From Euglena gracilis (taxonomy: Eukaryota), in the NCBI GenBank assembly GCA_039621445.1, contig CP154954.1, forward strand, positions 17,390,589-17,454,588: DNA of 64,000 bases, read 5' to 3'. This document shows positions 11,788-40,960 of the stretch, piece by piece. The notes under the pieces are model-generated. The model did no database searches. It was not told the origin of the DNA and worked only from the letters and a program-made list of their open reading frames with translations. How positions within the stretch are numbered: position 1 is the stretch's first letter; each line of letters starts with the position of its first letter. The position numbers were made by a program, and so were the translations under genes.

Positions 11788-11893
11788 GGGGGGTCCTATT
11801 TTTGGATTTTTGCTCGATCGGCTCAGGGGGGGTCTTATTTTTGGGGGTGGTCTTATTTTTGGGGGGGGTCTTATTTTGGGGGGGGGTTACCAT
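11788..11893. mobile_element. MITE fragment (GGTCTTATTTTGG repeats) truncating the DIRS element
   Basis: Four G-tract/TCTTATTTT units resemble the ATAAGACC motif family at 53494-53662. Confidence 0.5.
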
Positions 11894-12551
11894 AGGGCTT
11901 AATGCACCTGTTTTGCCTATCAGGTATTCTCCATGTTGATGTGGTTGGTTGACATACCATAGGGGGGCCTCTGTGGGTCCCCCCCTTGATTGAATGATCG
12001 GAAATTGAAAAATATTCATTGGAGGGGTTCTTGCCCCTCCCTCCAAAAGGACCACTGTGGGTGTGGGCGGCGGCGGCCTGAGCGCATGCGCACACAAAGT
12101 AGCGGAACCCTCCGCTACTACCTGACCACCCCCTTTCTGCATTTGCCTTCCGCAGGCTCCCTTGTTTCCATGGATTCAATCTGATTTGTGCATTGGAATT
12201 CAAGTTTTCAAGTTCAATTGTTCAATTCAATCAAATACAAAGATTTCAAAGAAACCAAAGGAAACTGCCAAAGGAGAAATTACCTTCAAGGAGATCAAAG
12301 AAAACCTCAAGGAATTGGCCTACCAGGAGCGCCCCAAGGCAATTTCAAAGGTACTTGCTGGATTTGGCTGGGCTAAGTGGCTATAAGGGTGGGAAGCACC
12401 CCCTGAAAACCCCTAGCACCCAGGCTTTTCCGCCCCCCCTCTGTCCCCCCTCAATTTCCCCCCTGCGAGGGCCCACCTAAGCGGCTCCGCAGACCCCCAG
12501 AGGCATCGCAGGAGGCACCCCCCTCCACTCCGCCGCCGGGAACACTAAAAA

Positions 12552-15500
12552 ATGGATCCCAACCCATTCCAAGCACCCACGGAGCTTCCCAGGGCCTCCG
12601 TGGGGGCTGAGCCCACCCGCGCACCCCCCCTCGCCGGATCCGTGACCCGGGACCCACCCTGCCGGAACCCCAGCGAGACCGGGACCCCCCCTGGGAAACT
12701 GGTAGCAGAGGCTTACGACCCTACCCCACACAACAACCCATTCCTCGCGGCCCACTCTGAGGTGAACCTTCAGATCACCGGCCGAGGCCCAGCACTCGGC
12801 GACCGCACCCCAGCGATGCCTGCAATCCCCTACGGGGGCCCCCCATCACATCTCCGTGGTAGCCCCCACGGGGATGCCCAATGCACAGCCCTAGCCCTGC
12901 TGTCCCCAAGTACAAATGATTTTGATCTCGATAGCCCTCGGGATCGAACCCCCACCCCACGGAAAGGAAAGTCAACCGGAAATACCCTTTTCCCCCCGTT
13001 CCCATCGCTCGATGAAGCCCCATCAGTGCTGCCTCCACCCTTCTCCCCCACCGACTCCGACCCAAACCATCCCTCCATCTTCTCCATCCGTCCCCCACCC
13101 TCCTCCTCATACACCCCACATCCCCCATCCTTCAGCCCTCATCCCCCATCCTACTCCTCCCCGACATCCGACGTCCCGGACCCAACCGACGGACCGCAGC
13201 CCCCCCAAGGGAGCCGAGACATGGGGCTGCGGACCCCGTTCTCCTCTGGGGCCACTCCCCGGCCCCAGAAGGTCCCGGGACTCTCCCCAGAGGAAGGGGG
13301 AGCAGAGGAGACGGACGAGCAGGAGCAGTGGGAGGAACAACGGTGGGAACCATGGGGGTCTGAAGGAGGATGGTGGCCTACTGAGGGTGACTACAAGCAG
13401 GACGAGATGTTCAACGACATCAAGGCGACGGCGGCACAACAACAACAAGACATCGAGACAGTCAAACGACAAATCACCGCATGCGACACCGCAGTCAATC
13501 TCGTGCGTGAGCAAGCAACCCGTGCGTATGACGTTTCGATGCGATGCGCGGCAGAGACTACAACGCTGCACGAAGCGGCGAGCGCCGCGCAAACCGCGAT
13601 CACACAGCACGAGGTTCGCTTCGCGATGGTGGAACGAGATGTCCAAGGGTTGAAGGAGCAGATCAAGACCGAAGCGGCTTCATCGTCCTCCAAAGGTGCA
13701 ACCGTCGACGCCGCGACAATCCACACTATCAGCAAACACGATGCGCGAATCACCGTCGTCGAAAGCGAGGTTCAAATGGTGAAGGAGCAGATCAAGATGG
13801 AGACAACAACACGAAACAGCGACATCCGGTCCCTAGTGGAAATGATGCGGCGCGAACACGAGCAACAAGCAGCAAAAGGATCACCAAAACCGCAACAACC
13901 TATCCAGAACCCGGAGATGGAGGTGGCAATGAACAGAATGACAGTGCGGATCCAAGAAATCGAACAATCGAAAGACCGACTGAAACGGGCGACGGTGGAG
14001 GAAGTGACGGTCATCAAGAAGGAGGTGGAGGCGATGAAACAAGCACAGCAGACACAGGTGGCGGTGATGGCGAAGGAGATCCAGGAGATGAAGCAAAAAC
14101 AACAGACATCGCAACCCCAACAACCGACCACATCCGACACTCTCATCCAGGATCTGATCTTCAAGGTGCAGGCCCTCGAGCAGAACAACAAGCAGTTCAA
14201 ACGCGAGACGACGGAGTACATCCGGAAGCTCGAGATCCAGGTGCACGACTTCCACCACCTTGGGGCCAGGGTACAAGCCCTGGAGACCTCCATGGCCCGA
14301 TCCAAAGATGAGAAGGACAGAGACCTTCTCCGGCTGAGCAAGAAGGTCGAGGTGGCGGACGAAGCACTGGCAAGGGCCATGGAGCGGGTGGAGAACAAGA
14401 TGCACGAGGAGATCAAACGACTTCAACTTCCACAACAACCACTCCAATCAACGGAAGAGGTGGAGGACGGCATCCGACAGCTGCGGGAGAGAGTGCTCCA
14501 TGGAGAGGGAGCGTTCTCCAAGGCCATCAAGGAGACAAAGACACAGCTCAGGGAAATACAGAGGGACATCCAGCTAATCCGGCAACAATCACGCCCCAAT
14601 GTGAGCAGCAGTGAACAGATGGAGCGAGAAGTGCAAGATCTGGCGAGACAAGTCGCACGGCTACAGCTCAGCACAACAACGCCCATCCAGGAACCACACA
14701 TCCCCCGTGAAGAAGTCCGTCAACGTGCAGAGGTCCACACATTCCCGTCCCAACCGTACCCAGAAATACAAGCACGACAACAATCTTCGGTTGCGGTGCG
14801 ACCGGAGCTCAGGTTGGCAAGAAAGAGCACGCGATCAATGGTGCAAAGTGAAGCAGTGACATCAATCCCAGTACAAACAGTGATGCCAATGACGCAAGTG
14901 ACACAGCCACCCAGGAGCACAACCGGAACGGCGGTGCGGGGGGTGGAAGTGACCATCGCCCCAGTGCAAGCACACACCGTCAGTCCACAACTCCAACTCC
15001 TACCCCCACAACTCCTGGAGTCCATCAGCGGCAGACATCCCGGAAGGTTCAGCGGGATTGCAGAGGACTGGCCAATGTGGAGAAGAAAGTGGATTCCGTT
15101 TCTACGAGAAACGGAAGGGCTGATGCCAGCAATGACCGATGCACAGCGATTGGCGTTGCTGCTGCGAAGTGCACTCGACGAGGCCGGGGCTCTCCTGGTG
15201 GACCAGGAGCTGGAAGCCAATCCGGACCTCGGGTACGAAGAGTACTGGGCGCGCCTCGACCTGGAGTTCGGGGCGGAAGACAAGGAGGTCCTCCGCCGCA
15301 AGCTCCACCGGCTGAAGATGGCGCATGCGGGCAAGCCAACAGAGAAGTCGTGGCGTGAGCTCTACGCACAGATGATGACCCTGGGTGGGCAACTTGGCGA
15401 TGTCAGTGATGCAGAACTGAGTCGCCTGTTGATGAATGCGATCCCAAGGGATCCGTGGCGAAGGAAGCTGGCGATGGAGGAGGACAAAAGGACAGAGAGG

Positions 15501-16350
15501 GGCACCTTGGTGCTCGATGGGCTGCCAATCGATGTGGCCACAGAGGAGGTGGAGAACATGGTGCTGGCGGAGACCGGGCTGAGACCACTTGCCGTGCGAC
15601 GGTTCGGCAAGCGAGTGAAGGTGACGCCGCAAGGGGAAGAGCATCGGCATGCCATCAAAATGCTCTATGACCGGCAGCGGCTCCAAGGCGGGAGCGTTGT
15701 CAAGGTCTCCCCGGACAATGCGGAGTTGGGGCCAAAAGAAATCAACGAGCTGATGACTCGTTGGCTCCGAACGGAGCAGCGGATCGCCAACGCGCCCGAG
15801 CCGCAGCAAATCTCCGGCCCCCAAAGGCAAGACCATCGGCCACAGCCGCGGTGGCACCGGGAAGTGGATGCAGAGTGGGATGGTGCGGAAGAAGAAGAGG
15901 AAGAAGCTGTCCGGCAAGTGGGCAAGGGAAACAAACGGCAAGATAAGAGGCCCCCGACACCTCCAAAGGTGTCTGAGAAGAAGGAGGAGCAACCGACAAG
16001 CACGGTGCAACCCGGACCACAGCCCACCCAAAGTGCACCGTCACCGCCACCGGCGGTGAAGGGAGGAGATCGATCGACAACCAGAGTGGTCATCATCGGG
16101 ACAGTGGCAGAATGCCCCGTACCAAGGCGGAGCGTCGTGGAACAACTCATGGGATGCCAAAGGCAAGGGAAAAGGCAACCCACAATGGTCAAAGGGAGGA
16201 GATGGCAAAGGTGGTGGACAAGACAAGGGTGGCAAAGGCAAAGGCGATGAGAAAGGCAAGAGCAAAGGAAAGGGAGATGGAAAAGGCAAAGGAGGAAAAG
16301 ACGGCGGCCGAGGGAGGAGTGTCGCCGCAGTGGAGGAGTGGGAGGAGTGA
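12552..16350 (+). CDS. gag: Gag-like protein (Pro-rich N-terminus, coiled coil, capsid-like domain, GKG-rich tail)
   Basis: 1232-aa ORF with capsid-like PGRFSGIAEDWPMWRRKW. A GATC duplication at ~16068-16075 shifts the frame. Removing it continues as QPEWSSSGQW...KGKGKG...GGRGRSVAAVEEWEE to TGA at 16348-16350. Confidence 0.75.
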
Positions 16351-16859
16351 AGGGGCCGCCCAGGCCCCAGGGGAGGAGGCCTGGGCAGGCAGTCAAAACC
16401 CCGAGCCGGAGACCGGCAAGAGGAAGTGCACGAGGTGAGAACCGTGCAGGTGTGCTCCACCACCCTGTCCAGGCATCGAGAGGAGGAAGGATGGCAGGTG
16501 GTGGAGAAAAAGAAAAGAAACCGCAAGCCAAGACAATCACCTCCGATGACACAACCCGACAAGGATCAAGGCGCAAAGGGAAGGAAGGAAGAAGGGGAGA
16601 GATCTATGCCAAGGAAATGGCAAAGATCAACAACGAAGAACAACAACCACTCCAAGGGAAAAGGAAGTAAGAAGGAGGAACGACAACCTCATCGCGACAA
16701 CCACCTCAAGGGTCAACATCTACCACACAACACCCTCCCCGCGACACCAACCGGCATCCACAACAAGAAAAGCAACACCTACCCCAAAGAAAGCAACATC
16801 CACTGCGCGACACCGACCGGCATCCACCACAAGAAGAGCACCCAAGAAGCCTAACAGCC

Positions 16860-18170: not shown

Positions 18171-18212
18171 ACGCCAGAAGAAAAAGAGAAGCACCAGCAG
18201 AGCCGCGGACGC

Positions 18213-18820
18213 GAGCTCTGGGCACTGGACCTGTTCTCCGGGACAGGCAGTGTCCGCCGGGCCCTGGAGGCACTGGGTTACCATGTCGTGAGTGTCGACT
18301 GGGACTCCCGGTGGCACCCCGATGTGGTGGCGGACATCCGGCGATGGGAGTACTGGCAGCAGTATTCCCCGGGTGACTTCGATCTGGTGGCAGCATCCCC
18401 ACCATGCACCGAGTACTCATCGGCAATGACGACAAGGCCGAGGCGGTTGAGGGAAGCAGATGCGGTGGTGAGGAAGACAAGGGAGATCATCCAGTACCTC
18501 GCTCCGGCGAAGTGGTGGATCGAGAATCCCCGGCACGGGCTGCTCCGCAGGAGGCGAGTAGTCCGAGACCTGGCCTTCGTGGACCTCGACTACTGCATGT
18601 TTGAAGACTTCGGCTACCGGAAGCCCACCCGGTTCTGGTTACCGAAGGAGATGGCCAGGGATCTCACCAACGTGTTGTGCGATGGCCGATGCAAAAGCTC
18701 GGTGCAAGGGGACAAAGGAAGACGGCGCCACCGGTTCCAGCTGGGAGGCAGGTGCCCCCACAGAGTGTCACGAGAGGAGGCGTACAGAATCCCAAGCGGC
18801 GTGGTGGAGTACCTGTGCCA
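18213..18820 (+). CDS. C5-cytosine DNA methyltransferase domain within the Gypsy polyprotein
   Basis: Motif I LDLFSGTGS (~18225-18251), SVD, ADI, motif IV ASPPCTEYS (catalytic Cys 18405-18407), motif VI WWIENP (ENP 18522-18530), DYCMF, motif VIII-like YRKPTRFW and a C-terminal AYRIP. In frame with the protease ALIDTGA. Confidence 0.9.
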
Positions 18821-18949
18821 AGGCACAGGACCACAAGCAGCGAAGCAGAAGGAGCAGTGTCCAACAGCCAAAGTGCAAGAGGTGACCATCAAGCCGTGGC
18901 ACGTAAAGCCGGCCCGCTTTCGAGTGGGCAGGATGCAAAGGAGAGGAGG

Positions 18950-19320
18950 CGGATGCCAGCTGCTGCTGGAAGTGACCGTGGAAGCCAATGGTGAGTGCTA
19001 CCAAGCAAAAGCGCTCATCGACACCGGAGCCCAGACGTCTCTCTGCCGGAGGGACCTGCTGCCAGAAGCCTGCTTCACGCAGTCCAGCAAGCCGCTGCTG
19101 CTCAAGACAGTGAGTGGCGAAGAGCTCAACGGAGGGAAGAACGAGGCCACCCTCACACTCTCCTTCGAGGCAAGGAGTGAACCGAAGAGGGCGTGCCAGT
19201 GGGCAGCCAGTGGAGCAGCACCGTCACCGCACACGACGGGGACATCGGCTGCGACCTCATCCTCGGATATCCGTGGTTGAAGGTCAATCGCCTCGACGTG
19301 CAGCCGTGGAGAGATGCACT
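18950..19320 (+). CDS. Retropepsin-type aspartic protease
   Basis: KALIDTGAQTSL (DTG ~19020-19028) and C-terminal DLILGYPWL, separated by a one-base frameshift near 19180-19200. Confidence 0.85.
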
Positions 19321-21947
19321 CCAGCTGCATGATCCGCCACGGTGGGTGCTGTGGGCGCAAAAGAACAGCACCGTCCAAGGACAAGGAAGATCGACAGCAG
19401 CAGTGGTCACCCAGCAAGAGCCGCAACCACACCCAGCATCCTCAACCCAACATCCCCTCCAGCAACCCCTGTCATCAACGGCAACAACACATCAAGAGGA
19501 AGAAGAGTGTCTGTGGGAAGAAGAAGAAGATGTGGAGGAGCAAATGCTGGCATTGGTGCAGAAGATGCGGATGTGCATTCCCGGAGAGATCCATGAAGCC
19601 GAGGAGGATGAAGGTGCGTCGGATGAGGAGATCTCCGACAACGAGGCACTCCAGGAAGCAGCAAGACACATCCTCCAAGTGCAGGGTGAGCAGGTGGAAA
19701 TCAGAGGCGTGGTGCAGTCAGACGACGAGCATCCAGATCCACTGGCATCCAAGCTCCGGCAAGAAATCCTGGATGAATACGCAGGACGCGTCTTCCGNNN
19801 NNNNNNNNNNNNNNNNNNNNNNNNNNNNNNNNNAAAAAAAAAAAACGTGCTCAGGCTGAAGCCAGGAGCAGTGCCAGTGGTGGGCAGAGTGATCCACCTG
19901 AGAGGAGAAAGGCATGATGCCCTGAGGGAAATGGAGGTAGAGTGCCGGAAGGACGGCAAGCTGGAACCCGGGAGGGGACCGTGGAGAGCAGCCGCCTTCC
20001 CAATAGAAAAGAAAAGCGGGAAGTGGAGACTGGTGTGCGATTACGCGCTCACCAACAAGCAGCTGCAGCCGGACAGCTACCCGCTGCCCCTCACCGAGGA
20101 GATCGTGGCCGAGCAAGCAAGATGTGAGCTGTTCAGCACAGTGGACCTCCGGGATGCCTTCCATCAAGTCGCCCTTGACGCCGAGTCCCGGCCAATCACC
20201 AACATCCAAATGCCGGGCGGCCTGTGGCAGTGGACTGTGGTCCCACAAGGGATCAATGTGGGCCCGGCACTGCTGCAACGGGACATCGATGCGACGTGTG
20301 CCGGACTGCAAAGGCACTCAAGGCCGTACTTTGATGACATCATCATCTGCACCAAAAGAAAAGTCGGCCAATCGGAAGAAGACTTCCTGAAGGCCCATGC
20401 CGCAGATGTCCGGGAGACGCTGGCAGCGCTCGAGCGCGACAAGTGGGTCTCGGACCCCAAGAAGGTGAAGCTGTTCATGCGCCGAGTGGAGTTTGTCGGC
20501 CATGTGCTGGGAGGAGGAAGAAGGTCACCAGCCCCAGGGAAGCTGGCAGCTGTCCAGAAGTGGGAGTTGCCCAAGAACGTCTCCAGCCTCCGGGCATTTT
20601 TGGGGCTGTGCAATTATTACAGCGGATACGTGCGAATGTTCGCCGAATATGCGGCACCGCTGCAGGAAAAGCTGAAGTTGCCCCGGGAGCTCGCCAAAGC
20701 AGGCAGCAAACACCCGGTGACATGGACCAAGGAGGAAGAGAAGGCATTCGAGCGCCTGAAGCAGGCACTCGTGGCGGACCTCGAGCTGTACCACATGGAC
20801 CCCACCAAGGCGTTTGTCCTTCGGACAGATGCATCGGACTATGCGGTGGGTGCGGCGCTGGAGCAGTTCCCACTGGTGGAAGGACTCCCGTCCCTCGCGG
20901 ACATCAAGCCAGGTGCCTCCATCCCCGTGGCCTTCATGAGCCGCAAGCTCACCGATGGCCAACGGCAGAAGTGGGACACCAGGGACAAGGAGACGTATGC
21001 AATCGTCTCCGCCCTGGACAAGTGGGCGCCGTACATTCTGGACAACGAGGTGCTGGTGCTGACAGACCACAAGAGCCTACAAGGGTGGTACAAAGAGCAT
21101 GTCGCAGGAGTCGGCCCACAAGGCCGCCGAGCAAGGTGGCATGCAAAGCTCAACAACTTCCGGCTGGAAGTCATCCATGTGCCAGGCCAAGCAAACACCA
21201 TCGGAGATGCGCTCTCAAGATGGGCATATCCCGCCAGCCAAGGCTTCAAGGACATCACCTGGCATGGCACCGATCAAGACACGAAAGAAATGCAAAAGCA
21301 AATCCAGAAGGAGAAGGAAGAGGAGAGATCGTGTCCAAAGGCCACTCACCCAATCGACACAGCCACCGAAGAAAAGCAAGTATGCATCATACGACACAAG
21401 CACAAAAACACCGAGAACACCGAAGTGGCAGTGACCACCCGAGCACAGATGAAAAAGAACCAGGCAGCACCAACAGCCAAGGGGTCCACCGACATGGAGA
21501 CGCCAAGCCCAGCACATCAAGGCACAGCAAGACCCACCAGACCCACCAGAGAAGAAAGCAGAATGCCAAAGAAAAACGAAAAGCCAGCAGTCCCACAGAC
21601 CAGCAGCAAATCAGCCAAGGACTCAGTGGAGGACGAGGAGGACGTGGTGGAAATCACAGCACCCACAGCAGAAACACCCAAGGAAAAGGATGCCACAACA
21701 TCAACCGCCGACCCAACAACCTCATCACCCCATCAACATCCCGACACCTCTATCATGCAGCCGCAACCTCCGTCTTCCAGCATCCCAGCACCCTTACCAT
21801 CCTCATCATCACCCGACATCCCAACATCCTCCCCAACCACATCTGCCCCTGATCATCCCATCACCGACCCCGCAGACGCCGAGGAGGACATCGACATCTA
21901 CACCATGGACTGGGGACCGCACTACGAGAAGTACCCCAGATGGCAAA
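19193..21947 (+). CDS. pol: Gypsy Pol: RT and RNase H
   Basis: WRLVCDYALTN, YPLP, VDLRDAFHQV, PQG, PYFDDIII (~20327-20338), VEFVGH, LRAFLGLCNYY, RTDASDYAVGA, KETYAIV, TDHKSL and NTIGDALSR. An N gap lies at 19798-19833. Confidence 0.95.
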
Positions 21948-24885
21948 CTGCTGCGATGGTCGTACCTGCAAACCCTGGCGGCCAAGGGGAAGAAGTTCCG
22001 GCTGGAGGGCCCCCCCGACACCGTCCTCCACGACCTCCGCCGGGCGCTGAACCAGTACACCGAGTGGGCAGCGCGCAGCAACCCCACCGACGCCACCTAC
22101 CTCCGGAAGCTGGGCGAGTGGGCCGACGCCGTGGAGGCCCGCTGCACCACCAACTGGCGGTGCTCGGCCGTCAGAGAAGAGCTGGTCCCCACCGGCTTCC
22201 CGGGCCTGTCACAGCAAATGCGGGAGGCCCACCAGGTCCTCGTCTTCCTCCACGACGACCGGGCCCCCCACGGCCTGATGTTCGTTTGCAAGCGCTGGTA
22301 CCAGAAGCAGATGGCCACCTACCTGGCGGACTCCACCGTGTTCGAGGACGTGACCGACACCTGGAGGGAGGTGGTTGCCCGGCTGTCGGAGGTCAACCAG
22401 CGGTTGCACTTCCCCACTGGCGCCGGTGTCGTCTACAACTACGGCATCTGGAAGCCAGCGAAGAAGAAGTTCCGGTTCATTGCCGGGACCCGCAAGAACC
22501 CCGATCCCGACCCCGGGTCCCCCGCCCCCGCCTCTGAGTCCGCCCCCGCCTCCGCCCCCACCGCCTCCAAGGAGCCCCCCCGGCAGCCCCTCTATGCCCT
22601 GAGCAAGGCTTTGGTGTCGCTCCTGAAGCACATCGAGGTCGCCCTCCGGGAAAAGGACGAGCGGCGGCAACAGCAGGAGGGCATCAAGGCGTTCTGGGGA
22701 ATCGACAGCGTGGAGTCTTTCGTCCGGATGGTCCGAACCCACTCCAAGGACATCCTGGCGGGGGGCTTGGAGACGGCGGACTTCACGACGATGTACACGG
22801 CCTTCACCTTCGACGCCATCATCGAGCGGACCATGGAGTCGGCCAAGGAGGCCTGGGCCTTCGTGCGGGAGACCAAGACCCCCGCTGGGGTGGACCCCGC
22901 CACCCCACCGTCCCTCACCACCGGCGGCTGGTCGTGGGATGGCCTCGGCTACTCCTTGGATGACCTGAAGGAGCTGGTGGCCGTGGCGGTGCAGAACAAC
23001 TACACCTGCAATGGCGGAAGGGTCCGGCGCCAGATCCGGGGCATGCCCATGGGCCTCCCCCCGGCCCCGCAGCTGGCCAACCTGGCCTGCTACCCCGTGG
23101 AGCGCGACCACATGTACGCCCTCCCTCCCCAGCTCCGGTCCTCCGCCGTGTCCCGATACATCGACGACATCGTCCACCCCACCACCATGCCCCTCCCCTC
23201 GGCAGCCGAGTACGGCATGGAGTACAAGACCACCGGCTCCGGCGAGTCCGTGGTGTGCCTGGGCGTCCGAGTGTACATCCAATGCCATTCCAACGGGGAC
23301 CGCGTGGTGCACACCACCGTCCACGACCGGGAGGAGGAGTACCCCCACCACATTGTTCGCTACCCCCTAGCCACCACCACCGCCCCCACCGAGCAGCTGG
23401 GCGGGGTCATCATGGGCCGCCTGGAGTTCGCCCGGATGGCCTGCAGCCACATGGGGGATTTCAAGCAGTCAGTGGCCAACGTCTTCCGCAACGCCATCTG
23501 GCGGGGGTACTCTCGCCGCCTGGTGCAATCGGTGTGGAGCCGCTTCCTCTTCCAGCGCTGGCATGCCGCCGACATCCGCGTCCGTGAGCTCCGCACCTGG
23601 TTTTCCAAGGTGTGGAAGTGGCTCCACTCCAGCCCCCACCGCGCTCCCCCAGCCCCATGGGCCACCGCCCTCCCCCTCGATGAGGCCCATGCCCCCTCCC
23701 AGGCCGACTTTCTCTCCGTCTTCGGCCACCCCGCACCCCTCCCCGGGGGCATCGACGACTTGCTGGCCGAGATGACGCCGCCCCCTTCCCCCTCCGCCTC
23801 CCATCCCTCCGACGTGGACGTGATGATCATCGACCGGGAGGCCCACGTGCGCCACGGCAAGCAGCAGGCCCCGAGAGGAGCGTCCCGATCCGTCCACTGG
23901 CCAGGGCTCAGAGAGGGGGACGCCCCAGAGGTGAGGTGCGCCCAATCCGTGAGCAGCAAGGGCAAGGACCCGGGGGTGATGCCGCCAAGGATCCCGCCCC
24001 CGGCGAGCCCGGGCGAGCCTCTACCAATCAGTCAAGAGGAGGGGGACGCCCCAAACAGCCGCAGCACCAGGCCGGCCCACACCGGGGCGGGGTTTACGCC
24101 GGGCAGTGAACCGGGGGTGACGCCGCCAAGGATCCCGCCCCCGGGGAGCCCGGGCGGGCCTGAGGACAGCGAGGGGGACGCCCCGAGCCACGGACTGGCC
24201 CACACCGTGACGGGGTTTACGTCGGGCTGTGAACTGGGGGTGACGCCGCCAAGGATCTCAGCCCCAGGGAGCCCGGGCGGGTCCGTGATCGTGCTGCCAG
24301 GACCGGCCTAAGAGCACGCGCGGGACGCCCCAAGCGACAGGCTGGCCCACACCGGAGCGGGGTTTACGCTGGGCGGTGAACCGGGGGTGACGCCGCCAAG
24401 GATCTCGCCCCCGGGGAGCCCGGGCGGGCCTGAGAGTTGCCAGCCCACGGCCATGGAGACAGAGACGGACGCCCTCGAGGGGGTTGCAGCGCAGCCAAGC
24501 ACCGCCTCCCAATCCCCCATCGCCCCAACGGCTCCCACAGCCTCCCAAGGCCCCCCTCTCTCCAACCCGGACTCCGCCTCCCCAACCCCATGCCTCCCCC
24601 CACCCACCCGTGAGGTCCTCCAGGAGCGGGTCGTCATCGTCGAGAGGCAGGTCCCCGTTCCCGTGCGGGAGCCTGTCTTCGTGGATCGGGTCATCGAGCG
24701 GGTCGTCCCTGTCCCCGTGCAAGTCCCCGTGGAGGTCCGGGTCCCCATGCCCGTCCCCGTCCCCGTGGAGGTCCGGGTTCCCGTCCCCATCTACCTCCCT
24801 CCCTCCGCGCCACAAGCCCCCTCCATCGTGCAGAATGTGCATCTCAACGCACTCACCATCGGCCCCTCCTCCTCCTCGTCTTCCT
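21948..24885 (+). mobile_element. Penelope-like element copy C, 5'-truncated (RT plus part of the C-terminal extension)
   Basis: TADFTTMYT, QIRGMPMGLPPAPQLANL and RYIDD (23157-23168). Near-identical in inverse to ~26078-29928. TAA at 24309-24311 where copies B and D read TCA. Confidence 0.9.
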
Positions 24886-26639
24886 GCCGCAGAGGGGGGA
24901 GGCCTCGCACGGGTTGCACGCCCACCTCCAGCCGGTGCGGCCCGAACTGGAGGGCCGGAGATACCAGCTCCGGCAGGCCGGGGGTGGCACACCTGCGATG
25001 TCACCGCCTCCGCGTCCGTGCTGGTCGTCGTCTCCTGCTGCCGCCGCTGCCGCCGCCGTCCGCCGCGACGATGGCCTTGCAGGGGCTCCCACGGGTTGGG
25101 ATGAGAGGGGATCGGAGGGGGGCCGGCCCCTGCCTCCCTCTCTCTCTCTCTCTCCTCTCCGCGATGGTCTCAATGCGGTTGGGGGCTCCGACTCCCCCCG
25201 AAAGTGGCGTTGAGCTTGGCATTTTTCCTGCAGCTTCTTCAGCTCCTTGCTGAGGGCGGAGATGCTGTCCGCCATCCTTTTGATCTCCTTGTGCAGTGCC
25301 GCCCCTCGCCGGCTCTGCACCGGTGTCCATGCGACACCTTCGTCTCTTCGGTCTCTTTCTTCTCCTCGGGGTGGGTTGCCCTGCGCACTCCCAGGGCGAG
25401 AGGGTCTCGAAAATCTCATGGCTGCTGAAGAAAAAGAATCCCCAGGGCGGCGCCCACGGGCCGCTTCCCTGTTGGGTCGCCAAGGGGCTTGGGGCCGGGG
25501 CAAATCCCGCTTCGCTTGCTCCCCTGCGGACGGGGTTGCGGGGCACAGGCACCACGCTGCCTGCCACCCGCCCGGACTTGGCTCGGTCTCGCTCCGGGGA
25601 CGTGGCTCCCGGAGGGTTGGTGGCCCTGGTGGGGGCCGTGGGGGTGGCGCCTTGGACCGGGGTGATCGGCCTCCCCGATCCTGGCACCTTCATGCCAGTC
25701 GTGCGTCTGGCGCTCGAGGTCCGCGGGGCGCTCGACGTTCTGGGCTGCTGCGGCTTCTTGCCATTCTTGGATGATGCTCCGCCGCTGGGGGCCGCACGAG
25801 GCCCAGACCTGGTTCTGCAGGTCCGGGTCCCATGATTCGTACATGGCTTGTCCTCGTCCTGCTTCTCGTGGATCCTTCAGCACCGCCTTCCACTCCTCGT
25901 ACTTGGCTCGCCACTCGGCAGGCCACTCACTCAATGAAGTGAACTTCCTCTTCTTCGTGGGGCCTTGGGAAGAGGTGTCGTCGTCGGTGGTGTCGCTGGG
26001 GGGCGGGGGGGGAGCAGTGAGGAGGGGGCGGTTGGGGGCCTCGATGGCGGGAATGGGGAGACCTTGGAGGAGGGCCAAGGAAGACGAGGAGGAGGAGGGG
26101 CCGATGGTGAGTGCGTTGAGATGCACATTCTGCACGATGGAGGGGGCTTGTGGCGCGGAGGGAGGGAGGTAGATGGGGACGGGAACCCGGACCTCCACGG
26201 GGACGGGGACGGGCATGGGGACCCGGACCTCCACGGGGACTTGCACGGGGACAGGGACGACCCGCTCGATGACCCGATCCACGAAGACAGGCTCCCGCAC
26301 GGGAACGGGGACCTGCCTCTCGACGATGACGACCCGCTCCTGGAGGACCTCACGGGTGGGTGGGGGGAGGCATGGGGTTGGGGAGGCGGAGTCCGGATTG
26401 GAGAGAGGGGGGCCTTGGGAGGCTGTGGGAGCCGTTGGGGCGATGGGGGATTGGGAGGCGGTGCTTGGCTGCGCTGCAACCCCCTCGAGGGCGTCCGTCT
26501 CTGTCTCCATGGCCGTGGGCTGGCAACTCTCAGGCCCGCCCGGGCTCCCCGGGGGCGAGATCCTTGGCGGCGTCACCCCCGGTTCACGCCCAGCGTAAAC
26601 CCCGCTCGGTGTGGGCCAGCCTGTCGCTTGGGGGCGTCC

Positions 26640-27590
26640 CCCCTCCATCTCCTTCCACTCACCTCTCATCCCCCTCCGCCCCGCTCCCGCGGGTGGAGGG
26701 GATCCTCTCCCTCGTCCCCCATACGCACCCTCTCCGCAGCTCCCTTCACGCCCGCCTGCATCCCCGTTCCCTGACACCCCCTCGTAACCCCCCCCCCCGC
26801 TCTTCTCTCCTGCTTTCCCTCACCTCCTTCACTCCCACTCCCTCCATCTTTGTGCCCCCCCCTCTCCCGTGCCTCCCCTTTCCTCCTCACGCCCTGCCTC
26901 TCCTTCCATCACCTCTTCCCCCCTCCCCTGGCTCCCCCCCCCTCACTCCTCCTCCCCCGCCTCCTTGGCCAGTTCCGCTTCCTCCTTTCTCCTTGGCCCT
27001 CATCCAATTCTTTCGCCCCGGCTCCGATGCTCGACCCTTCCCCTGCCTGACTGGGCTTCCTTGCACCCTCACCTTCTCCCCCTCCCCATCCTCCCAACTT
27101 CTTCACCACCCACCCCCTCCACTCCCCCTTTCTCTTCACGTGTGCCTCCCTTTCCACTCCTCTAGTTGCTCGCCCCCACCTCGCCCACCATGCCTCATGT
27201 CACCCTTTTCTACCTCCGGCGGGTCCTCCCAGCCCCACCCATCCCATCTGTACTTCCTCTGCTCCGTTCTCACTTTGTCTCCCTTTCCACATACGCCATT
27301 CTTTCATCGCTTCCCCCACTCCCTCTTAGCGCTCCCCACCCCCCCCCGACCCGCCTCAGACCTTTCCCCCTCGTCCCCATCCTTCCACAGCACCCGCACT
27401 CTGCCATCCCCGTACCTCCACCTTTCCTCCCCCGCTCTGGTCCTTGCCCGCCTCACCCCCCCGCGTCTCGCTGGCTCCTCCCTCTCACTACAACCCCACC
27501 CCCGCCCCATCCTTGCTCCGCCCCTCTCCCCCACGTCCCCTCCTTCCCCCGTCTTGTGCCCTCTCCTCCCCCTCTATTTTCCTGGCAGCA
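26640..27590. other. Non-periodic pyrimidine-rich block, probable read/consensus artefact
   Basis: Replaces a ~50-nt segment that is intact in copies B (~34095-34145) and D (~60065-60115). No repeat unit, TIR or TSD is visible. Confidence 0.65.
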
Positions 27591-30500
27591 GGCACGGCCG
27601 CCGGGCTCCCTGGGGCTGAGATCCTTGGCGGGTCACCCCCAGTTCACAGCCCGACGTAAACCCCGTCACGGTGTGGGCCAGTCCGTGGCTCGGGGCGTCC
27701 CCCTCGCTGTCCTCAGGCCCGCCCGGGCTCCCCGGGGGCGGGATCCTTGGCGGCGTCACCCCCGGTTCACTGCCCGGCGTAAACCCCGCCCCGGTGTGGG
27801 CCGGCCTGGTGCTGCGGCTGTTTGGGGCGTCCCCCTCCTCTTGACTGATTGGTAGAGGCTCGCCCGGGCTCGCCGGGGGCGGGATCCTTGGCGGCATCAC
27901 CCCCGGGTCCTTGCCCTTGCTGCTCACGGATTGGGCGCACCTCACCTCTGGGGCGTCCCCCTCTCTGAGCCCTGGCCAGTGGACGGATCGGGACGCTCCT
28001 CTCGGGGCCTGCTGCTTGCCGTGGCGCACGTGGGCCTCCCGGTCGATGATCATCACGTCCACGTCGGAGGGATGGGAGGCGGAGGGGGAAGGGGGCGGCG
28101 TCATCTCGGCCAGCAAGTCGTCGATGCCCCCGGGGAGGGGTGCGGGGGGGCCGAAGACGGAGAGAAGGTCGGCCTGGGGGGGGGCATGGGCCTCAGCGGG
28201 GGGGGGGGCGGTGGCCCATGGGGCTGGGGGAGCGCGGTGGGGGCTGGAGTGGAGCCACTTCCACACCTTGGAAAACCAGGTGCGGAGCTCACGGACGCGG
28301 ATGTCGGTGGCATGCCAGCGCTGGAAGAGGAAGCGGCTCCACACCGATTGCACCAGGCGGCGAGAGTACCCCCGCCAGATGGCGTTGCGGAAGACGTTGG
28401 CCACTGACTGCTTGAAATCCCCCATGTGGCTGCAGGCCATCCGGGCGAACTCCAGGCGGCCCATGATGACCCCGCCCAGCTGCTCGGTGGGGGCGGTGGT
28501 GGTGGCTAGGGGGTAGCGAACAATGTGGTGGGGGTACTCCTCCTCCCGGTCGTGGACGGTGGTGTGCACCACGCGGTCCCCGTTGGAATGGCATTGGATG
28601 TACACTCGGACGCCCAGGCACACCACGGACTCGCCGGAGCCGGTGGTCTTGTACTCCATGCCGTACTCGGCTGCCGAGGGGAGGGGCATGGTGGTGGGGT
28701 GGACGATGTCGTCGATGTATCGGGACACGGCGGAGGACCGGAGCTGGGGAGGGAGGGCGTACATGTGGTCGCGCTCCACGGGGTAGCAGGCCAGGTTGGC
28801 CAGCTGCGGGGCCGGGGGGAGGCCCATGGGCATGCCCCGGATCTGGCGCCGGACCCTTCCGCCATTGCAGGTGTAGTTGTTCTGCACCGCCACGGCCACC
28901 AGCTCCTTCAGGTCATCCAAGGAGTAGCCGAGGCCATCCCACGACCAGCCGCCGGTGGTGAGGGACGGTGGGGTGGCGGGGTCCACCCCAGCGGGGGTCT
29001 TGGTCTCCCGCACGAAGGCCCAGGCCTCCTTGGCCGACTCCATGGTCCGCTCGATGATGGCGTCGAAGGTGAAGGCCGTGTACATCGTCGTGAAGTCCGC
29101 CGTCTCCAAGCCCCCCGCCAGGATGTCCTTGGAGTGGGTTCGGACCATCCGGACGAAAGACTCCACGCTGTCGATTCCCCAGAACGCCTTGATGCCCTCC
29201 TGCTGTTGCCGCCGCTCGTCCTTTTCCCGGAGGGCGACCTCGATGTGCTTCAGGAGCGACACCAAAGCCTTGCTCAGGGCATAGAGGGGCTGCCGGGGGG
29301 GCTCCTTGGAGGCGGTGGGGGCGGAGGCGGGGGCGGACTCAGAGGCGGGGGCGGGGGACCCGGGGTCGGGATCGGGGTTCTTGCGGGTCCCGGCAATGAA
29401 CCGGAACTTCTTCTTCGCTGGCTTCCAGATGCCGTAGTTGTAGACGACACCGGCGCCAGTGGGGAAGTGCAACCGCTGGTTGACCTCCGACAGCCGGGCA
29501 ACCACCTCCCTCCAGGTGTCGGTCACGTCCTCGAACACGGTGGAGTCCGCCAGGTAGGTGGCCATCTGCTTCTGGTACCACCGCTTGCAGACGAACATCA
29601 GGCCATGGGGGGCCCGGTCGTCGTGGAGGAAGACGAGGACCTGGTGGGCCTCCCGCATTTGCTGTGAAAGGCCGGGGAAGCCGGCGGGCACCAGCTCTTC
29701 TCTGACGGCCGAGCACCGCCAGTTGGTGGTGCAGCGGGCCTCCACGGCATCGGCCCACTCGCCCAGCTTCCGGAGGTAGGTGGCGTCGGTGGGGTTGCTG
29801 CGCGCCGCCCACTCGGTGTACTGGTTCAGCGCCCGGCGGAGGTCGTGGAGGACGGTGTCGGGGGGGCCCTCCAGCCGGAACTTCTTGCCCTTGGCCGCCA
29901 GGGTTTGCAGGTACGACCACCGCAGCAGCTCGGACTCGTTGCTCACCACGTGGCCCTCGTGGAAGGCCGCCGGCTCCTTCCGGCGGAGGGCTGTGTGGCA
30001 CTGGCAGCCCTCGAGGTCGTCGGCCTGCGCGGCGGCCACGTCCAGCTCGCTGGAGACCTGGGCGTAGTTGCACAGCCACGCCTGCCACTGCGGGGCGAAC
30101 TTGTCGCAGACCATGATGGCGGCGGCGACGTCCGGGTTGGGGTGGAGCTTGTAGACGGCCTCCTCCCGCAACACCTTGCGCAGCTCCAGGTGGCGGGCGC
30201 CGTTGTTGGAGTAGGAGAACTTCAGGAACTGCCGCTCGGGGGCCTCCTTCCTCTTCGCCTTGATGAGCTCCACCAGCTTGCACTCCAGGGAGAGGTGGCC
30301 GGAGCGCCGCTCGTCGTCCGGGACGTGCTGTTGCAGCCAGTCCAGGGTGGAACACAACCGCGCCTTGCCCCAGGAGCGTGCCTCCGCCAGGGCGCTGGAG
30401 TCCCCTTGGTGGCAGCGGCGGAGCCACTTGGCTAGGTCAGGGCTGGGCGGAGGGTCGCCTTGGGATGTGGGGGCGGGGTCGGGGCTGGGGAGGGTGTGCT

Positions 30501-30635
30501 GGCGGCGGAGCACCTTCCGGCTGACGGGGAAGCCGGGGTAGGCGGCGTTGAAGCCGTGGGGCCACATGGAGTTGAGGAGGCCCACCCACTTGCGCTCGCG
30601 GGCGAGGGCATCCCGGGGGGGGGGGGGGGGGGGGT

Positions 30636-30673
<38 letters not shown>

Positions 30674-31304
30674 CGGGGGGGGGGGGGGGGTGGGGGGGGG
30701 GGGGGGGCGCGGCCCGGGGGAAGCTGTCTGGTGAGGGGAGCCTCTCGATGGGGATCATGAGGAAGGAGAAGGGGGTGGGGTCGTTGGCCAGGGCGTCGTG
30801 CAGGGCGTCGGCGCAGCGCCCCCGGCTCCACCAGTGCTCCTTGGTCCGCTTGTAGACCTTCCGCGTGGTCTGCCCAACGTAGAGCCGCCCCGTGGGGAAG
30901 TGGAAGAGGGCGTAAATCCAGCCAGGGGCGTCCCACAGGGCGGCCACGTTGCCCCAATCCACGGCGGCATTGGCTGGGTCGGAAGAGCGGAGCTGCAGGA
31001 CCCTGCGCATGGTCTTGTTGCGCCAGGATTGCCGCCCCCAGCTGCGCTGCATCCACTGAAGGTGGTCCTGCCAGCTCCACTGCCCCTCGTTGCGGCGGTG
31101 GCGGGACGGCTGGGGGTCATGCTTGTCGTAGGGCTCGGCGATGGGGAGGGCGCGGTCATCCCGGGAGTGGGATGGCCTGGGGGGCCTTCGGGAAGAGGGT
31201 TGCCCGGGAGGGCGCTCGGGGGGAGGCCTGGGGGTGCGAGAAACCTCACCAGGCAATTCTGAGTGGACCCCGGGGAAAGCTCCCCGAGCCGCAGGGACTG
31301 CGGA

Positions 31305-31680
31305 AATCTCTCTTCTTGATTGGTATGGACGGGGTATTCTGGGTGCGGGTGGGGGTGGGGATGGGAGGGGATGGGGAGGGAGGTGGGGGGGCGCCGCAGA
31401 GGGGGGAGGCCTCGCACGGGTTGCACGCCCACCTCCAGCCGGTGCGGCCCGAACTGGAGGGCCGGAGATACCAGCTCCGGCAGGCGCCTCGCAGGGAGGG
31501 CATACATGGGATGCCGCTCCGATCGGAGGGGGGCCGGCTCGTCGTCTGCCGCCGCCGCCGTCCGCCGCGACGATGGCCTCGCAGGGGATCCCACGGGTTG
31601 GGATGAGAGGGGATCGGAGGGGGGCCGGCCCTTGCCTCCCTCTCTCTCTCTCTCTCTCCCCTCCGCGGTGGTCTCCTCCG
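31305..31680 (-). repeat. pLTR-like direct repeat of the Penelope-like family
   Basis: The same block recurs at ~32050-32625 (with a ~95-nt subunit triplicated), ~58030-58400, ~24886-25165 (partial) and ~37767-38145 (diverged). It occurs both before the ORF start and at element 3' ends. Confidence 0.85.
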
Positions 31681-31818
31681 CGGTCTCTCTCTCTCTCTTC
31701 TGAATCGGTGTTGCTGGGGGAACTCCTTGGGGGGAACTCCTTGCCGACCCGAGAGTGTGTGCTTGTGGGGGAAGTGTGTTGTCAGTCGGTGTGGGCGCGT
31801 GTGTTGTCAGTCTGTGTT

Positions 31819-31891
31819 GCGGTTTCGCCCCAGGCTGGCAGGTGGGGCATCGTCAGGGGTGACGACCCTGCCAACCCTCGTCCCCGACCGC
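31819..31891 (-). ncRNA. Type III hammerhead ribozyme
   Basis: Minus strand reads GCGG-UC/GGG-GACGA-gggUUGGCAggg-UCGUC-a-CCC-CUGACGA-U-GCCCCA-CCUGCCAGCC-UGGGGC-GAAA-CCGC. The core is complete, stems I-III pair, and GUC cleavage is predicted between 31886 and 31885. Confidence 0.92.
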
Positions 31892-32035
31892 GCTTGTCTG
31901 TGTGGTGCAGACCGTTACAAACGAGCTCTGCGTCCCCCTCCGGGGGGGGGGGGGGGGGGGGGGGGGCTGAAAAAAACCGGCCCCAAAAACAAGGCAGCGC
32001 GGGACGGAAAAATGGTCCACTACCTACGGGGCACC

Positions 32036-35000
32036 CTCTCTCTCTCTCTCTCTCTCTTCTTGATTGGTATGGACGGGGGATTCTGGGTGCGGGTGGGGGT
32101 GGGGATGGGAGGGGGTGGGGGGGTGCCGCAGAGGGGGGAGGCCTCGCACGGGTTGCACGCCCACCTCCAGCCGGTGCGGCCCGAACTGGAGGGCCGGAGA
32201 TACCAGCTCCGGGGTGAGGGAGGTGGGGGGGTGCCGCAGAGGGGGGAGGCCTCGCACGGGTTGCACGCCCACCTCCAGCCGGTGCGGCCCGAACTGGAGG
32301 GCCGGAGAGCTCCGCTCCGGGTGAGGGAGGTGGGGGGGTGCCGCAGAGGGGGGAGGCCTCGCACGGGTTGCACGCCCACCTCCAGCCGGTGCGGCCCGAA
32401 CTGGAGGGCCGGAGATACCAGCTCCGGCAGGCCGGGGGTGGCACACCTGCGATGTCGCCGCCTCCGCGTCCGTGCTGGTCGTCGTCTCCTGCTGCCGCCG
32501 CTGCCGCCGCCGTCCGCCGCGACGATGGCCTCGCAGGGGATCCCACGGGTTGGGATGAGAGGGGATCGGAGGGGGGCCGGCCCTTGCCTCCCTCTCTCTC
32601 TCTCTCTCTCCCCTCCGCGGTGGTCTCGATGTGGTTGGGGGCTCCGACTCCCCCCGACAGTGGCGTTGAGCTTGACATTTTTCCTGCAGCTTCTTCAGCT
32701 CCGCGCTCAGGGCGGAGATGGTGTCCGCCATTCTCTTGATCTCCTTGTGCAGGGCAGCCCCTCGCCTGCTCTGCACCGGCGTCCATACGTCGCCTTCTTC
32801 TCTTCTGCCTCTTGCTTCATCACGGGGTTGGTTGCCCTGCGCACTCCCAGGGCGAGAGGGTCTTGTAGATCTCATGGCGCTTGAACTTTGTGATTCCCCA
32901 GGGCGGTGCCCACGGGTCGATTCCCTGTTGGGTCGCCAAGGGGCTTGGGGCCGGGGCAAATCCCGCTTCGCTTGCTCCCCTGCGGACGGGGTTGGCGGGG
33001 CACAGGCACCACGCTGCCTGCCACCCGCCCGGACTTGGCTCGGTCTCGCTCCGGGGACGTGGCTCCCGGAGGGTTGGTGGCCCTGGTGGGGGCCGTGGGG
33101 GTGGCGCCTTGGACCGGGGTGGTCGGCCTCCCCGATCCTGGCACCTTCATGCCAGTCGTGCGTCTGGCGCTCGAGGTCCGCGGGGCGCTCGACGTTCTGG
33201 GCTGCTGCGGCTTCTTGCCATTCTTGGATGATGCTCCGCCGCTGGGGGCCGCACGAGGCCCAGACCTGGTTCTGCAGGTCCGGGTCCCATGATTCGTACA
33301 TGGCTTGTCCTCGTCCTGCTTGTCGTGGGTCCTTCAGCACCGCCTTCCACTCCTCGTACTTGGCTCGCCACTCGGCAGGCCACTCACTCAACGAAGTGAA
33401 CTTCCTCTTCTTCGTGGGGCCTTGGGAAGAGGTGGGGGCGGCGGTGGTGTCGCGGGGTGGGGGGGGGGGGGTGGGGTGGAGGAGGCGGTTGTGGGCCTCG
33501 ATGGCGGGAATGGGGAGACCTTGGAGGAGGGCCAAGGAAGACGAGGAGGAGGAGGGGCCGATGGTGAGTGCGTTGAGATGCACATTCTGCACGATGGAGG
33601 GGGCTTGTGGCGCGGAGGGAGGGAGGTAGATGGGGATGGGGAACCCGGACCTCCACGGGGACGGGGACGGGCATGGGGACCCGGACCTCCACGGGGACTT
33701 GCACGGGGACCGGGACGACCCGCTCGATGACCCGATCCACGAAGACAGGCTCCCGCACGGGAACGGGGACCTGCCTCTCGACGATGACGACCCGCTCCTG
33801 GAGGACCTCACGGGTGGGTGGGGGGAGGCATGGGGTTGGGGAGGCGGAGTCCGGGTTGGAGAGAGGGGGGCCTTGGGAGGCTGTGGGAGCCGTTGGGGCG
33901 ATGGGGGATTGGGAGGCGGTGCTTGGCTGCGCTGCAACCCCCTCGAGGGCGTCCGTCTCTGTCTCCATGGCCGTGGGCTGGCAACTCTCAGGCCCGCCCG
34001 GGCTCCCCGGGGGCGAGATCCTTGGCGGCGTCACCCCCGGTTCACCGCCCAGCGTAAACCCCGCTCCGGTGTGGGCCAGCCTGTCGCTTGGGGCGTCCCC
34101 GCTCGGCTCTGAGGCCGGTCCTGGCAGCACGATCACGGACCCGCCCGGGCTCCCTGGGGCTGAGATCCTTGGCGGCGTCACCCCCAGTTCACAGCCCGAC
34201 GTAAACCCCGTCACGGTGTGGGCCAGTCCGTGGCTCGGGGCGTCCCCCTCGCTGTCCTCAGGCCCGCCCGGGCTCCCCGGGGGCGGGATCCTTGGCGGCG
34301 TCACCCCCGGTTCACTGCCCGGCGTAAACCCCGCCCCGGTGTGGGCCGGCCTGGTGCTGCGGCTGTTTGGGGCGTCCCCCTCCTCTTGACTGATTGGTAG
34401 AGGCTCGCCCGGGCTCGCCGGGGGCGGGATCCTTGGCGGCATCACCCCCGGGTCCTTGCCCTTGCTGCTCACGGATTGGGCGCACCTCACCTCTGGGGCG
34501 TCCCCCTCTCTGAGCCCTGGCCAGTGGACGGATCGGGACGCTCCTCTCGGGGCCTGCTGCTTGCCGTGGCGCACGTGGGCCTCCCGGTCGATGATCATCA
34601 CGTCCACGTCGGAGGGCTGGGAGGCGGAGGGGGAAGGGGGCGGCGTCATCTCGGCCCGCTCGTCGTCGCTGCCCCCGGTGACGCGTCCGGGGTGGCCGAA
34701 GCCGGAGAGAAAGTCGGCCTGGGGGGGGGCAAGGGCCTCAGGGAGGGGGAGGGCGTGGGCCCGTGGGGTTGGGGGAGCGCGGTGGGGGCTGGAGTGGAGC
34801 CACTTCCACACCTTGGAAAACCAGGTGCGGAGCTCACGGACGCGGATGTCGGTGGCATGCCAGCGCTGGAAGAGGAAGCGGCTCCACACCGATTGCACCA
34901 GGCGGCGAGAGTACCCCCGCCAGATGGCGTTGCGGAAGACGTTGGCCACTGACTGCTTGAAATCCCCCATGTGGCTGCAGGCCATCCGGGCGAACTCCAG

Positions 35001-40700: not shown

Positions 40701-40960
40701 ACTGGGATCTGTACCGGCACCACGCGCTCGACGTACACCGGCACGGGACAGGGGGTGGGCACCGGCACCGGCACCGGGTACGGTTGGGGCACCTGGACCA
40801 CTTGCAGCGGCTGCTGCACTGTGGTTGTTGGCGGCTGCTGGCTGGTTGGCGTCGCCGCTGATGTCTGTGTGGTGGGTGTAGGGGAAGCGCCGGCCACCTC
40901 CCGCTCCTGTGTGCTCGCTGTGCACCGTGTTTCGGCCGACCGTTGGAGCTGGGATATCTG
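37767..40960 (-). mobile_element. 3' half of a diverged sister Penelope-like subfamily, head-to-tail upstream of copy B
   Basis: ORFs 39341-41032 and 37837-39354 share the VPV repeat, the LAEWPAEWREQYE...WDQSLQDQVWA domain and the HDWxxGxRIGEAxxPGP motif with the C-terminal extension of copies A-D. They end in a diverged pLTR. No RT is present. Confidence 0.7.

Follow-up and report, generated by a model that had tools for sequence, protein, structure and literature searches.

The question raised by this locus is whether a retrotransposon of Euglena gracilis encodes a DNA methyltransferase (DNMT) of its own and, if so, what kind of enzyme it is and how widely it is shared. The window, by which we mean the whole 64,000-nucleotide stretch analysed here (assembly GCA_039621445.1, contig CP154954.1, positions 17,390,589 to 17,454,588 of the forward strand; coordinates below are those of the window), contains a Ty3/Gypsy-type element in which an initial annotation, made from the sequence alone, had placed a C5-cytosine methyltransferase (C5-MTase) between Gag and protease. 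Judged from profile matches and a predicted structure, this domain is a real C5-MTase fold within the pol frame of the element (Table 1). The explanation we prefer, with a probability of roughly 0.7, is that it represents the DNMT module of a chromovirus-like Ty3/Gypsy family present in very high copy number, here in a copy that is defective and has lost its 3' end, and that the enzyme is shared with giant viruses and with the long terminal repeat (LTR) retrotransposons recently described as EpiLTRs.

As the initial annotation had stated, the ordered C5-MTase motifs are uninterrupted and in frame with the DTG of the protease: the plus-strand translation of 16671-19280 is a single frame of 869 residues with zero stops. 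We aligned 113 non-redundant family rows for the conservation analysis and for a tree. Three residues, namely the catalytic Cys, the ENP Glu and the SVD Asp that binds S-adenosylmethionine (SAM), are invariant (113/113 rows each), as is the Lys of KPTR, while the Arg of that motif is kept in 100, the motif I Phe in 110 and its first Gly in 112; no residue-level alignment of motif VIII was obtained. The catalytic core of DNMTs is retained in full, from motif I and the Asp that binds SAM, through the Cys of PC and the Glu of ENP, to the C-terminal helix.

A family profile built from 29 members matches DNMT1 chains (E 1.4e-4), with the motif I sequences of both aligned, PPC placed on PPCQ and ENP on ENV. 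An AlphaFold2 model based on the alignment behind this profile has a pLDDT of 94.8 and a pTM of 0.91, and when compared with the PDB using Foldseek gave 227 matches at E <= 0.001. Among the matches listed, every one at the top is a C5 DNA methyltransferase, and in structure DNMT3A/B, M.HhaI, M.HaeIII, DNMT1 and DIM2 match best. Using VIA-align, the model superposes on DNMT3A with a Z of 14.8 over 189 residues and on M.HhaI (chain 11-320) with a Z of 14.7 and a root-mean-square deviation (rmsd) of 3.4 over 197/206 residues, the latter alignment running from motif I through to the motif X helix at the C terminus. Although the Z of DNMT3A/B ties with that of M.HhaI, identity to the DNMT3A/B structures is only 15-17%, compared with 32% to a protein of Tetraselmis virus 1 (see below); this therefore suggests that the domain is not of the DNMT3 type found in dinoflagellate and charophyte elements, a comparison of identities only, as the tree took in no DNMT3 sequences.

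The domain is unusually small: M.HhaI is about 120 and DNMT3A about 70 residues longer. Where the target-recognition domain usually sits, from KPTR to the final helix, there are only about 50 residues, so that the recognition domain of M.HhaI and DNMT3A is replaced by a short Cys/His-rich segment. Within it lies a Cys-Cys-Cys-His tetrad formed by DYC (18588-18602), the two Cys of VLCDGRC (18672-18692; VLC and GRC) and RRH (18723-18737). The tetrad is kept in 113/113 rows, in transposon and giant-virus members alike (27/27 viral rows), and it probably takes the place of that recognition domain as a structural zinc site.

The domain is also preserved in other copies of the element. We found that 8940 contig pieces of run X1 align to the element and that the DNMT is covered to the same depth as the protease (PR) and reverse transcriptase (RT); the family is very abundant, with no sign of copies that lack the methyltransferase domain. 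Two further loci, on the metagenome contigs L001 and L002, were found with a single-protein query. They are 79% and 73% identical to the window in the domain, respectively, and both have the same continuous frame, in which an uninterrupted open reading frame (ORF) covers spacer, DNMT and PR and in L002 runs on through RT and RNase H (RH). The comparison of substitution rates between copies suggested by the initial annotation gave a Nei-Gojobori dN/dS of 0.149 at a dS of 1.0 (window versus L001, over the domain); the window-L002 and L001-L002 pairs were not used, their synonymous sites being saturated (pS about 0.75). The domain is intact in other copies and, as far as these sequences tell, under purifying selection. 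Thus C5-MTase profiles do match, and the other copies carry the domain in undegraded form, where the initial annotation had named the lack of a profile match and absent or degraded domains as grounds for giving up its claim.

Longer relatives show what an intact element looks like. Of 65 found, 26 were scanned with Pfam, and among these we detected an rve integrase in 16, a chromodomain in 14 and a Dam domain in 13. Three of the closest full-length relatives (P0016, P0052 and P0073) have the order DNMT-PR-RT-RH-integrase (IN)-chromodomain without a DAM match, and a fourth (P0025) has DNMT-PR-RT-RH-IN with neither a chromodomain nor a DAM match. The window element has the Ty3/Gypsy-like order PR-RT-RNase H, to which these closest relatives add rve after RH, and its assignment to the Gypsy type holds, with RT and RNase H matches at E of about 1e-22 and relatives that carry rve and a chromodomain. 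No PF05869 (DAM) match was detected in P0001-P0004, and the DAM parts of P0021 and P0038 gave no tblastn match in the window. One relative with DNMT, DAM, RT, IN and chromodomain (P0057, 1965 aa) also has an SLBP_RNA_bind domain at residues 553-623 (E 6.4e-23), which is the histone-mRNA stem-loop binding domain.

These copies bear on a reading in which the DNMT is foreign to the retrotransposon, a giant-virus or host gene nested or mis-assembled into a Gypsy copy. We consider this very improbable. It is true that the window is a transposon nest with an assembly gap, that the nearest structural relative is a viral protein, and that a preprint on Euglena elements (10.64898/2026.05.21.726589), in the part available, cautions against nested insertions and assembly artefacts of this kind. 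However, the same uninterrupted spacer-DNMT-PR(-RT) frame recurs on the independent contigs L001 and L002 and in P0006, P0007, P0008, P0016, P0025 and P0073, DNMT and RT have equal contig depth, the DNMT is joined to PR, RT, IN or DAM in 76 of the 290 proteins collected, and transposon-borne DNMTs form a clade with starred support of 98.

Table 1. Positions of the methyltransferase domain, the element that carries it and other features of the window
Feature	Position	Strand	Support or remark
ORF1, Gag-like, 1233 aa stop to stop, Lys/Gly/Arg-rich tail	12549..16250	+	open frame; position upstream of pol fits Gag
Start of pol frame as read in other copies	16351..16678	+	L001 ORF aligns to 16423-16686 in this frame
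Pro/Ser/Gln/His-rich spacer, 514 aa	16671..18212	+	Pro 27%, Ser 14%, Gln 14%, His 11%
Spacer 99-nt tandem array 1	16895-17189	+	3.0 copies, 88% matches
Spacer 99-nt tandem array 2	17201-17774	+	5.8 copies, 73% matches
Mini C5-cytosine methyltransferase domain, 206 aa	18213..18830	+	Pfam, profile, structure and fold searches; conservation; dN/dS
Motif I, LDLFSGTGS	18225-18251	+	FSGTG itself at 18234-18248
SAM-binding Asp, SVD	18291-18299	+	
Catalytic ASPPCTEYS	18393-18419	+	SPPC itself at 18396-18407
IENPR, motif VI-type	18519-18533	+	ENP where M.HhaI/DNMT3A read ENV
YRKPTRFW	18615-18638	+	
AYRIPSGVVEYLC	18780-18818	+	same frame
Aspartic protease, broken	18831..19441	+	DTG at 19020-19028; gag-asp_proteas E 5.3e-4, RVP E 0.002 (weak Pfam)
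Protease LIDTGAQ	19014-19034	+	in frame with methyltransferase motifs
36-N assembly gap	19798..19833		upstream of RT domain
Reverse transcriptase	20003-20506	+	RVT_1 E 9.3e-23
Ty3/Gypsy-type RNase H	20723-21160	+	RT_RNaseH E 7.2e-23, RT_RNaseH_2 E 9.6e-23
Truncation point of element, just before integrase	21948		X1, X7 and X15 contigs diverge exactly there
GC-rich (~69%) Penelope-like element array, outside DNMT element	21949..41552		direct repeats D6-D13
Further reverse-transcriptase ORF, other retroelement	9509-11895	+	RVT_1 E 2e-12
Further reverse-transcriptase ORF, other retroelement	59304-61664	-	RVT_1 E 2.5e-5

The copy in the window is dead: it carries a 2-nt and a 5-nt insertion and a 36-N gap, and it is truncated before the integrase. 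Five extra bases at about 19176-19180 lie inside the protease, after which homology continues in the frame of 19181 instead of that of 16671, and the open frame breaks 150 nt past the DTG. The protease is not interrupted in P0005 (96% identity), P0006-P0008, L001 and L002. Both forms, with and without the 5 nt, are present among the aligned contigs of the genome; at 19179 the form without them accounts for a depth of 3405/15013 in X1 (one contig) and was found in neither X7 nor X15. At 16677, almost no other copy shares the 2-nt insertion of the window, the form without it making up 23408/23961 of the depth in X1, 17/17 in X7 and 2/2 of the RNA reads; once it is removed, the frame from 16351 continues into spacer and DNMT, as in L001. 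At 21948 the GC content rises from 0.58 to 0.68, where a GC-rich Penelope-like element starts, and no integrase match was found anywhere in the window using eight relatives as queries, six of which reach into the integrase. Since the 3' end of the element is missing, an LTR pair is not definable in the window.

That the copy might nevertheless be active and autonomous, its frame changes being programmed ribosomal frameshifts, is highly unlikely. Frameshifts between gag, pro and pol are frequent in retroelements, and a large share of the contig depth belongs to the 5-nt form. The frame changes within the protease, though, where the five extra bases bring a stop in the new frame; no slippery heptamer was seen at 19181, the relatives read through without a shift, the 2-nt insertion is found almost only in the window copy, and a copy truncated at 21948 has lost its integrase and any 3' LTR. 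With both insertions and the truncation, the window copy cannot make the polyprotein from which the enzyme had been proposed to be cut; for intact copies, cleavage would still be conceivable.

Upstream of the domain, the repetitive spacer of the initial annotation is real, with two tandem arrays, but measures 514 residues and not about 430. The number of its repeats differs among genomic copies, with some contigs skipping 102 or 201 nt in the array, and the shorter spacers of L001 and L002 gave no alignment to window positions 16687-18056. The Gag placement stands in part: ORF1 lies where a Gag is to be looked for, upstream of pol, while no Pfam family matched 12549-16250 even at E <= 10. The ESM Atlas language model gave a lead, and no more than a lead, to PNMA/Retrotrans_gag/Ty3_capsid clusters (score 0.87). 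The ORF1 tail ends with a TGA at 16248-16250, at which the matching frame of L001 is open, and the X7 and X15 copies are without 4 nt at 16068, near the gag-pol junction.

The family to which the domain belongs is large. A search of 1.84 billion cluster representatives (clusters at 50% identity) yielded 2851 relatives at a threshold of E <= 0.001; tightening this to 1e-10 left 1311, and to 1e-30 left 154. A profile search for near-length proteins gave 4816 matches at E <= 1e-10 among 8000 scored candidates. The 290 domain-bearing proteins that we collected comprise 80 viral stand-alone proteins, 134 without any other recognised part (many of them fragments) and 76 in which the domain is linked to PR, RT, IN or DAM, in 24 different orders and with DAM in 31/76.

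The viral members resemble the window domain closely. The top viral model detected with Foldseek in BFVD is a putative cytosine methyltransferase of Tetraselmis virus 1 (A0A2P0VN45, 218 aa), which matches the window domain with an E of 3.6e-19, a TM of 0.87, an rmsd of 2.2 and 32% identity. Giant-virus mini-DNMTs of this kind agree with it in length, fold, motifs and the Cys-Cys-Cys-His tetrad; they differ in that their genes are free-standing, whereas the DNMT of the window family is fused into pol. By scanning IMG/VR with a narrowed family alignment, we found relatives encoded in 187/219 candidate stretches, on contigs of giant-virus type. In all 80 viral loci kept, the domain is a stand-alone ORF of 142-293 aa, and an RT match occurs in 0/80. 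Genes for the capsid of nucleocytoplasmic large DNA viruses (NCLDV), for PolB or for ribonucleotide reductase adjoin the mini-DNMT in 5/6 viral loci checked, and in the sixth a Dam gene lies at a distance of 3 kb. In that locus, on contig L022, the Dam gene (PF05869, E 7.3e-15) and the stand-alone mini-DNMT, about 3 kb apart (features at 4264-4746 on the minus and 7992-8780 on the plus strand), are the same pair of methyltransferases that EpiLTRs fuse into pol.

We placed the 113 rows in an unrooted maximum-likelihood tree, which gives no direction of transfer between virus and transposon. Excluded from it were 39 rows whose context was unknown, any row with >80% identity to one that was kept, and domains that failed to span profile positions 10-190. 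The window falls in a clade with starred support of 95 that comprises eight DNMT-PR(-RT) rows, none with a DAM label, and this clade is nested in that with starred support of 98, which holds 64 transposon rows and six stand-alone-like rows. The 27 viral rows and four Cymbomonas-type IN-DNMT rows are on the opposite side, on unstarred branches. A tree constrained to hold all 68 transposon rows as one clade against the viral rows is better by 13.7 log-likelihood units (lnL) and is not rejected in the approximately unbiased (AU) test (p 0.606). Two separate captures by LTR elements, one of the N-terminal type and one of the Cymbomonas C-terminal type, were considered and not retained, given branches of 81-94 that are unstarred and the AU p of 0.606 for one clade; as the AU test keeps a single clade, one capture is as good a reading as two. 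The initial annotation had thought of an independent acquisition, by this host and at this domain position. This does not hold: since the same DNMT is found in 76 transposon-linked proteins, in many orders, and on giant-virus contigs, its acquisition is, on these comparisons, not special to either.

Among known systems, the closest are the EpiLTRs of Cymbomonas tetramitiformis and Euglena gracilis, which combine DAM, DNMT and chromodomain (Fernandez-Moreno et al., bioRxiv 10.64898/2026.05.21.726589). As described in the part of the preprint available, they are LTR elements of chromovirus type whose pol carries a C5-DNMT outside DNMT3, as in the window family, and their DNMT clade is distinct from the DNMT3 acquisitions. 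The window domain matches the Cymbomonas protein CYMTET_39951 (P0066) with an E of 2.7e-26 and therefore belongs to the EpiLTR DNMT clade of Cymbomonas and Euglena. As in EpiLTRs, many relatives of the window family join DAM, DNMT and chromodomain. The lineage of the window itself differs in having no DAM (no PF05869 in P0002) and in the position of the DNMT, which is upstream of the protease, whereas that of the Cymbomonas EpiLTRs is at the 3' end of pol. According to the accessible text, the preprint screened for DAM, and DAM-less elements were therefore outside its screen.

Retrotransposons with DNMTs of other lineages were described earlier as SymbioLINE-Dnmt, SymbioDIRS-Dnmt3 and KnitGypsy-Dnmt3 (de Mendoza et al. 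2018, PMC5890265; also consulted in part). KnitGypsy-Dnmt3 of Klebsormidium nitens is likewise a Gypsy-type element with the DNMT inside Pol, conserved key residues and purifying selection (Ka/Ks <0.2, compared with 0.15 in the window family), but its enzyme is a eukaryotic DNMT3 and not a virus-type mini enzyme of about 200 residues. The two Symbiodinium elements likewise carry a DNMT on a retroelement and are present in very many copies, in a genome where CG methylation is pervasive; they differ from the window family in being DIRS elements (tyrosine recombinase) or carried in a LINE ORF1, with other DNMT lineages. SymbioDIRS-Dnmt3 domains were reported to methylate CG de novo in yeast, which is a precedent for activity. 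Elements of this kind were first reported in 2018 and the DNMT clade in 2026, and the window element is a variant of them that lacks DAM. In the literature we found nothing on DAM-less LTR elements with this DNMT, a point on which Supplementary Fig. 2D of the preprint could bear. Neither viral stand-alone homologues nor the Cys-Cys-Cys-His tetrad come up in the available part of the preprint, and the apparent giant-virus link and the predicted minimal Cys3-His architecture were not found elsewhere in print either; here the supplements of the preprint could bear.

Several observations weigh against our preferred explanation. Concerning the identity of the enzyme, the window domain scores below the curated cut-offs of both profiles, with an E of 0.00099 and 19.1 bits for PF00145 (cut-off 22) and an E of 0.0024 and 17.6 bits for TIGR00675 of NCBIfam (cut-off 100.65), and its best PDB match in a single-sequence search has an E of 0.23. 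The PF00145 match starts at profile position 4 and ends at position 110 of 324, and the score is below the cut-off because the domain is short, not because the fold is absent. The profile search proposed by the initial annotation stays below the cut-off for the window copy but reaches it, with >=22 bits, in 15/26 long relatives and also in the viral L007 and L012. DNMT2 tRNA methyltransferases are among the matches of the 29-member profile (E 0.025-0.028), and in the predicted structure the reduced recognition domain would be compatible with either DNA or RNA as substrate and would not settle the sequence context.

Concerning the element and its activity, the region upstream of ORF1 has no direct repeat in the window and no LTRs were found, and among the 12.9 million reads of one RNA run only nine, all partial fits, fell on the element. 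The CpG observed/expected (o/e) ratio is 0.73 for the element, compared with 0.68 for the window as a whole, with a TpG/CpA value of 1.28, so that the CpG-rich cDNA supposed by the initial annotation is not borne out; these values fit some methylation-driven decay, yet are no different from those of the flanks. The heavily methylated host rests on the description of Euglena in the preprint (10.64898/2026.05.21.726589), which in the part available reports near-default CG methylation. Finally, KnitGypsy-Dnmt3 gave no methylation in a yeast assay that its authors call inconclusive (PMC5890265, in the part consulted).

The DNMT2 matches and the target-recognition domain cut to about 50 residues could also point to a domain that is a relic, or that acts on something other than DNA, as an RNA C5-methyltransferase of tRNA type or a SAM-binding module of the particle. 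The role of orphan DNMTs, on DNA or on RNA, is hard to predict (Sarre et al. 2025, as far as the text was available). We regard this alternative as unlikely, if more serious than the others. Because its catalytic residues are invariant (Cys and Glu in 113/113 rows) and its dN/dS is 0.15, the domain is not a relic, while the best structural matches are DNA enzymes and the viral homologues are encoded in genomes of DNA viruses, in one case 3 kb from a Dam gene.

In intact family members, a single pol frame codes for a disordered spacer, then the mini DNMT (about 200 residues) and the aspartic protease, followed by RT, RNase H, integrase and chromodomain. In such copies, the protease may release the DNMT, or the DNMT may act inside the Gag-Pol particle. 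It would then place de novo 5-methylcytosine (5mC) on the new cDNA of the element or at its insertion site, and a new copy marked in this way would match the heavily methylated genome of the host. A wider scenario, which we put forward tentatively and think somewhat less probable than its opposite, is that a giant-virus-type DNMT of about 200 residues with a Cys3-His knuckle was exchanged between giant viruses and chromoviruses, then radiated in LTR elements with or without DAM and in many domain orders, as an unrecognised DNMT family below the PF00145 threshold, and camouflages their insertions by writing 5mC on fresh cDNA in a genome that is CG-methylated by default.

The rest of the window appears to consist of other mobile elements. 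The Penelope-like array downstream of the truncation begins with one partial copy on the plus strand, after which come minus-strand repeats, each about 6.5-7.5 kb long, with weak matches to RVT_1 (E 4.5e-4 to 6.2e-4) and GIY-YIG (E 0.007). Within it, a G-dominated tract at about 30617-30710 has long G runs and few other bases. Two further ORFs encode reverse transcriptases of other retroelements, and 82 other flanking ORFs gave no Pfam match and no host gene; the whole window therefore looks like transposon debris. Neither an Rfam family nor a tRNA was found in the window.

DNA-modifying enzymes carried by transposons mean that mobile elements manipulate the epigenome of their host and do not only suffer it, and to these the window family adds a lineage that has no DAM and carries its enzyme upstream of the protease. 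A published survey of DNMTs, in the part available, applied PF00145 at E < 1e-4 (Sarre 2025); as many members of this family are below the threshold of PF00145, counts of eukaryotic and viral DNMTs may be low. At about 200 residues, the enzyme would rank among the smallest cytosine-5 DNA methyltransferases, and such a minimal mini-DNMT would be convenient for asking how little target recognition needs. The structural and sequence link to giant-virus genes makes the origin of the module testable, in either direction.

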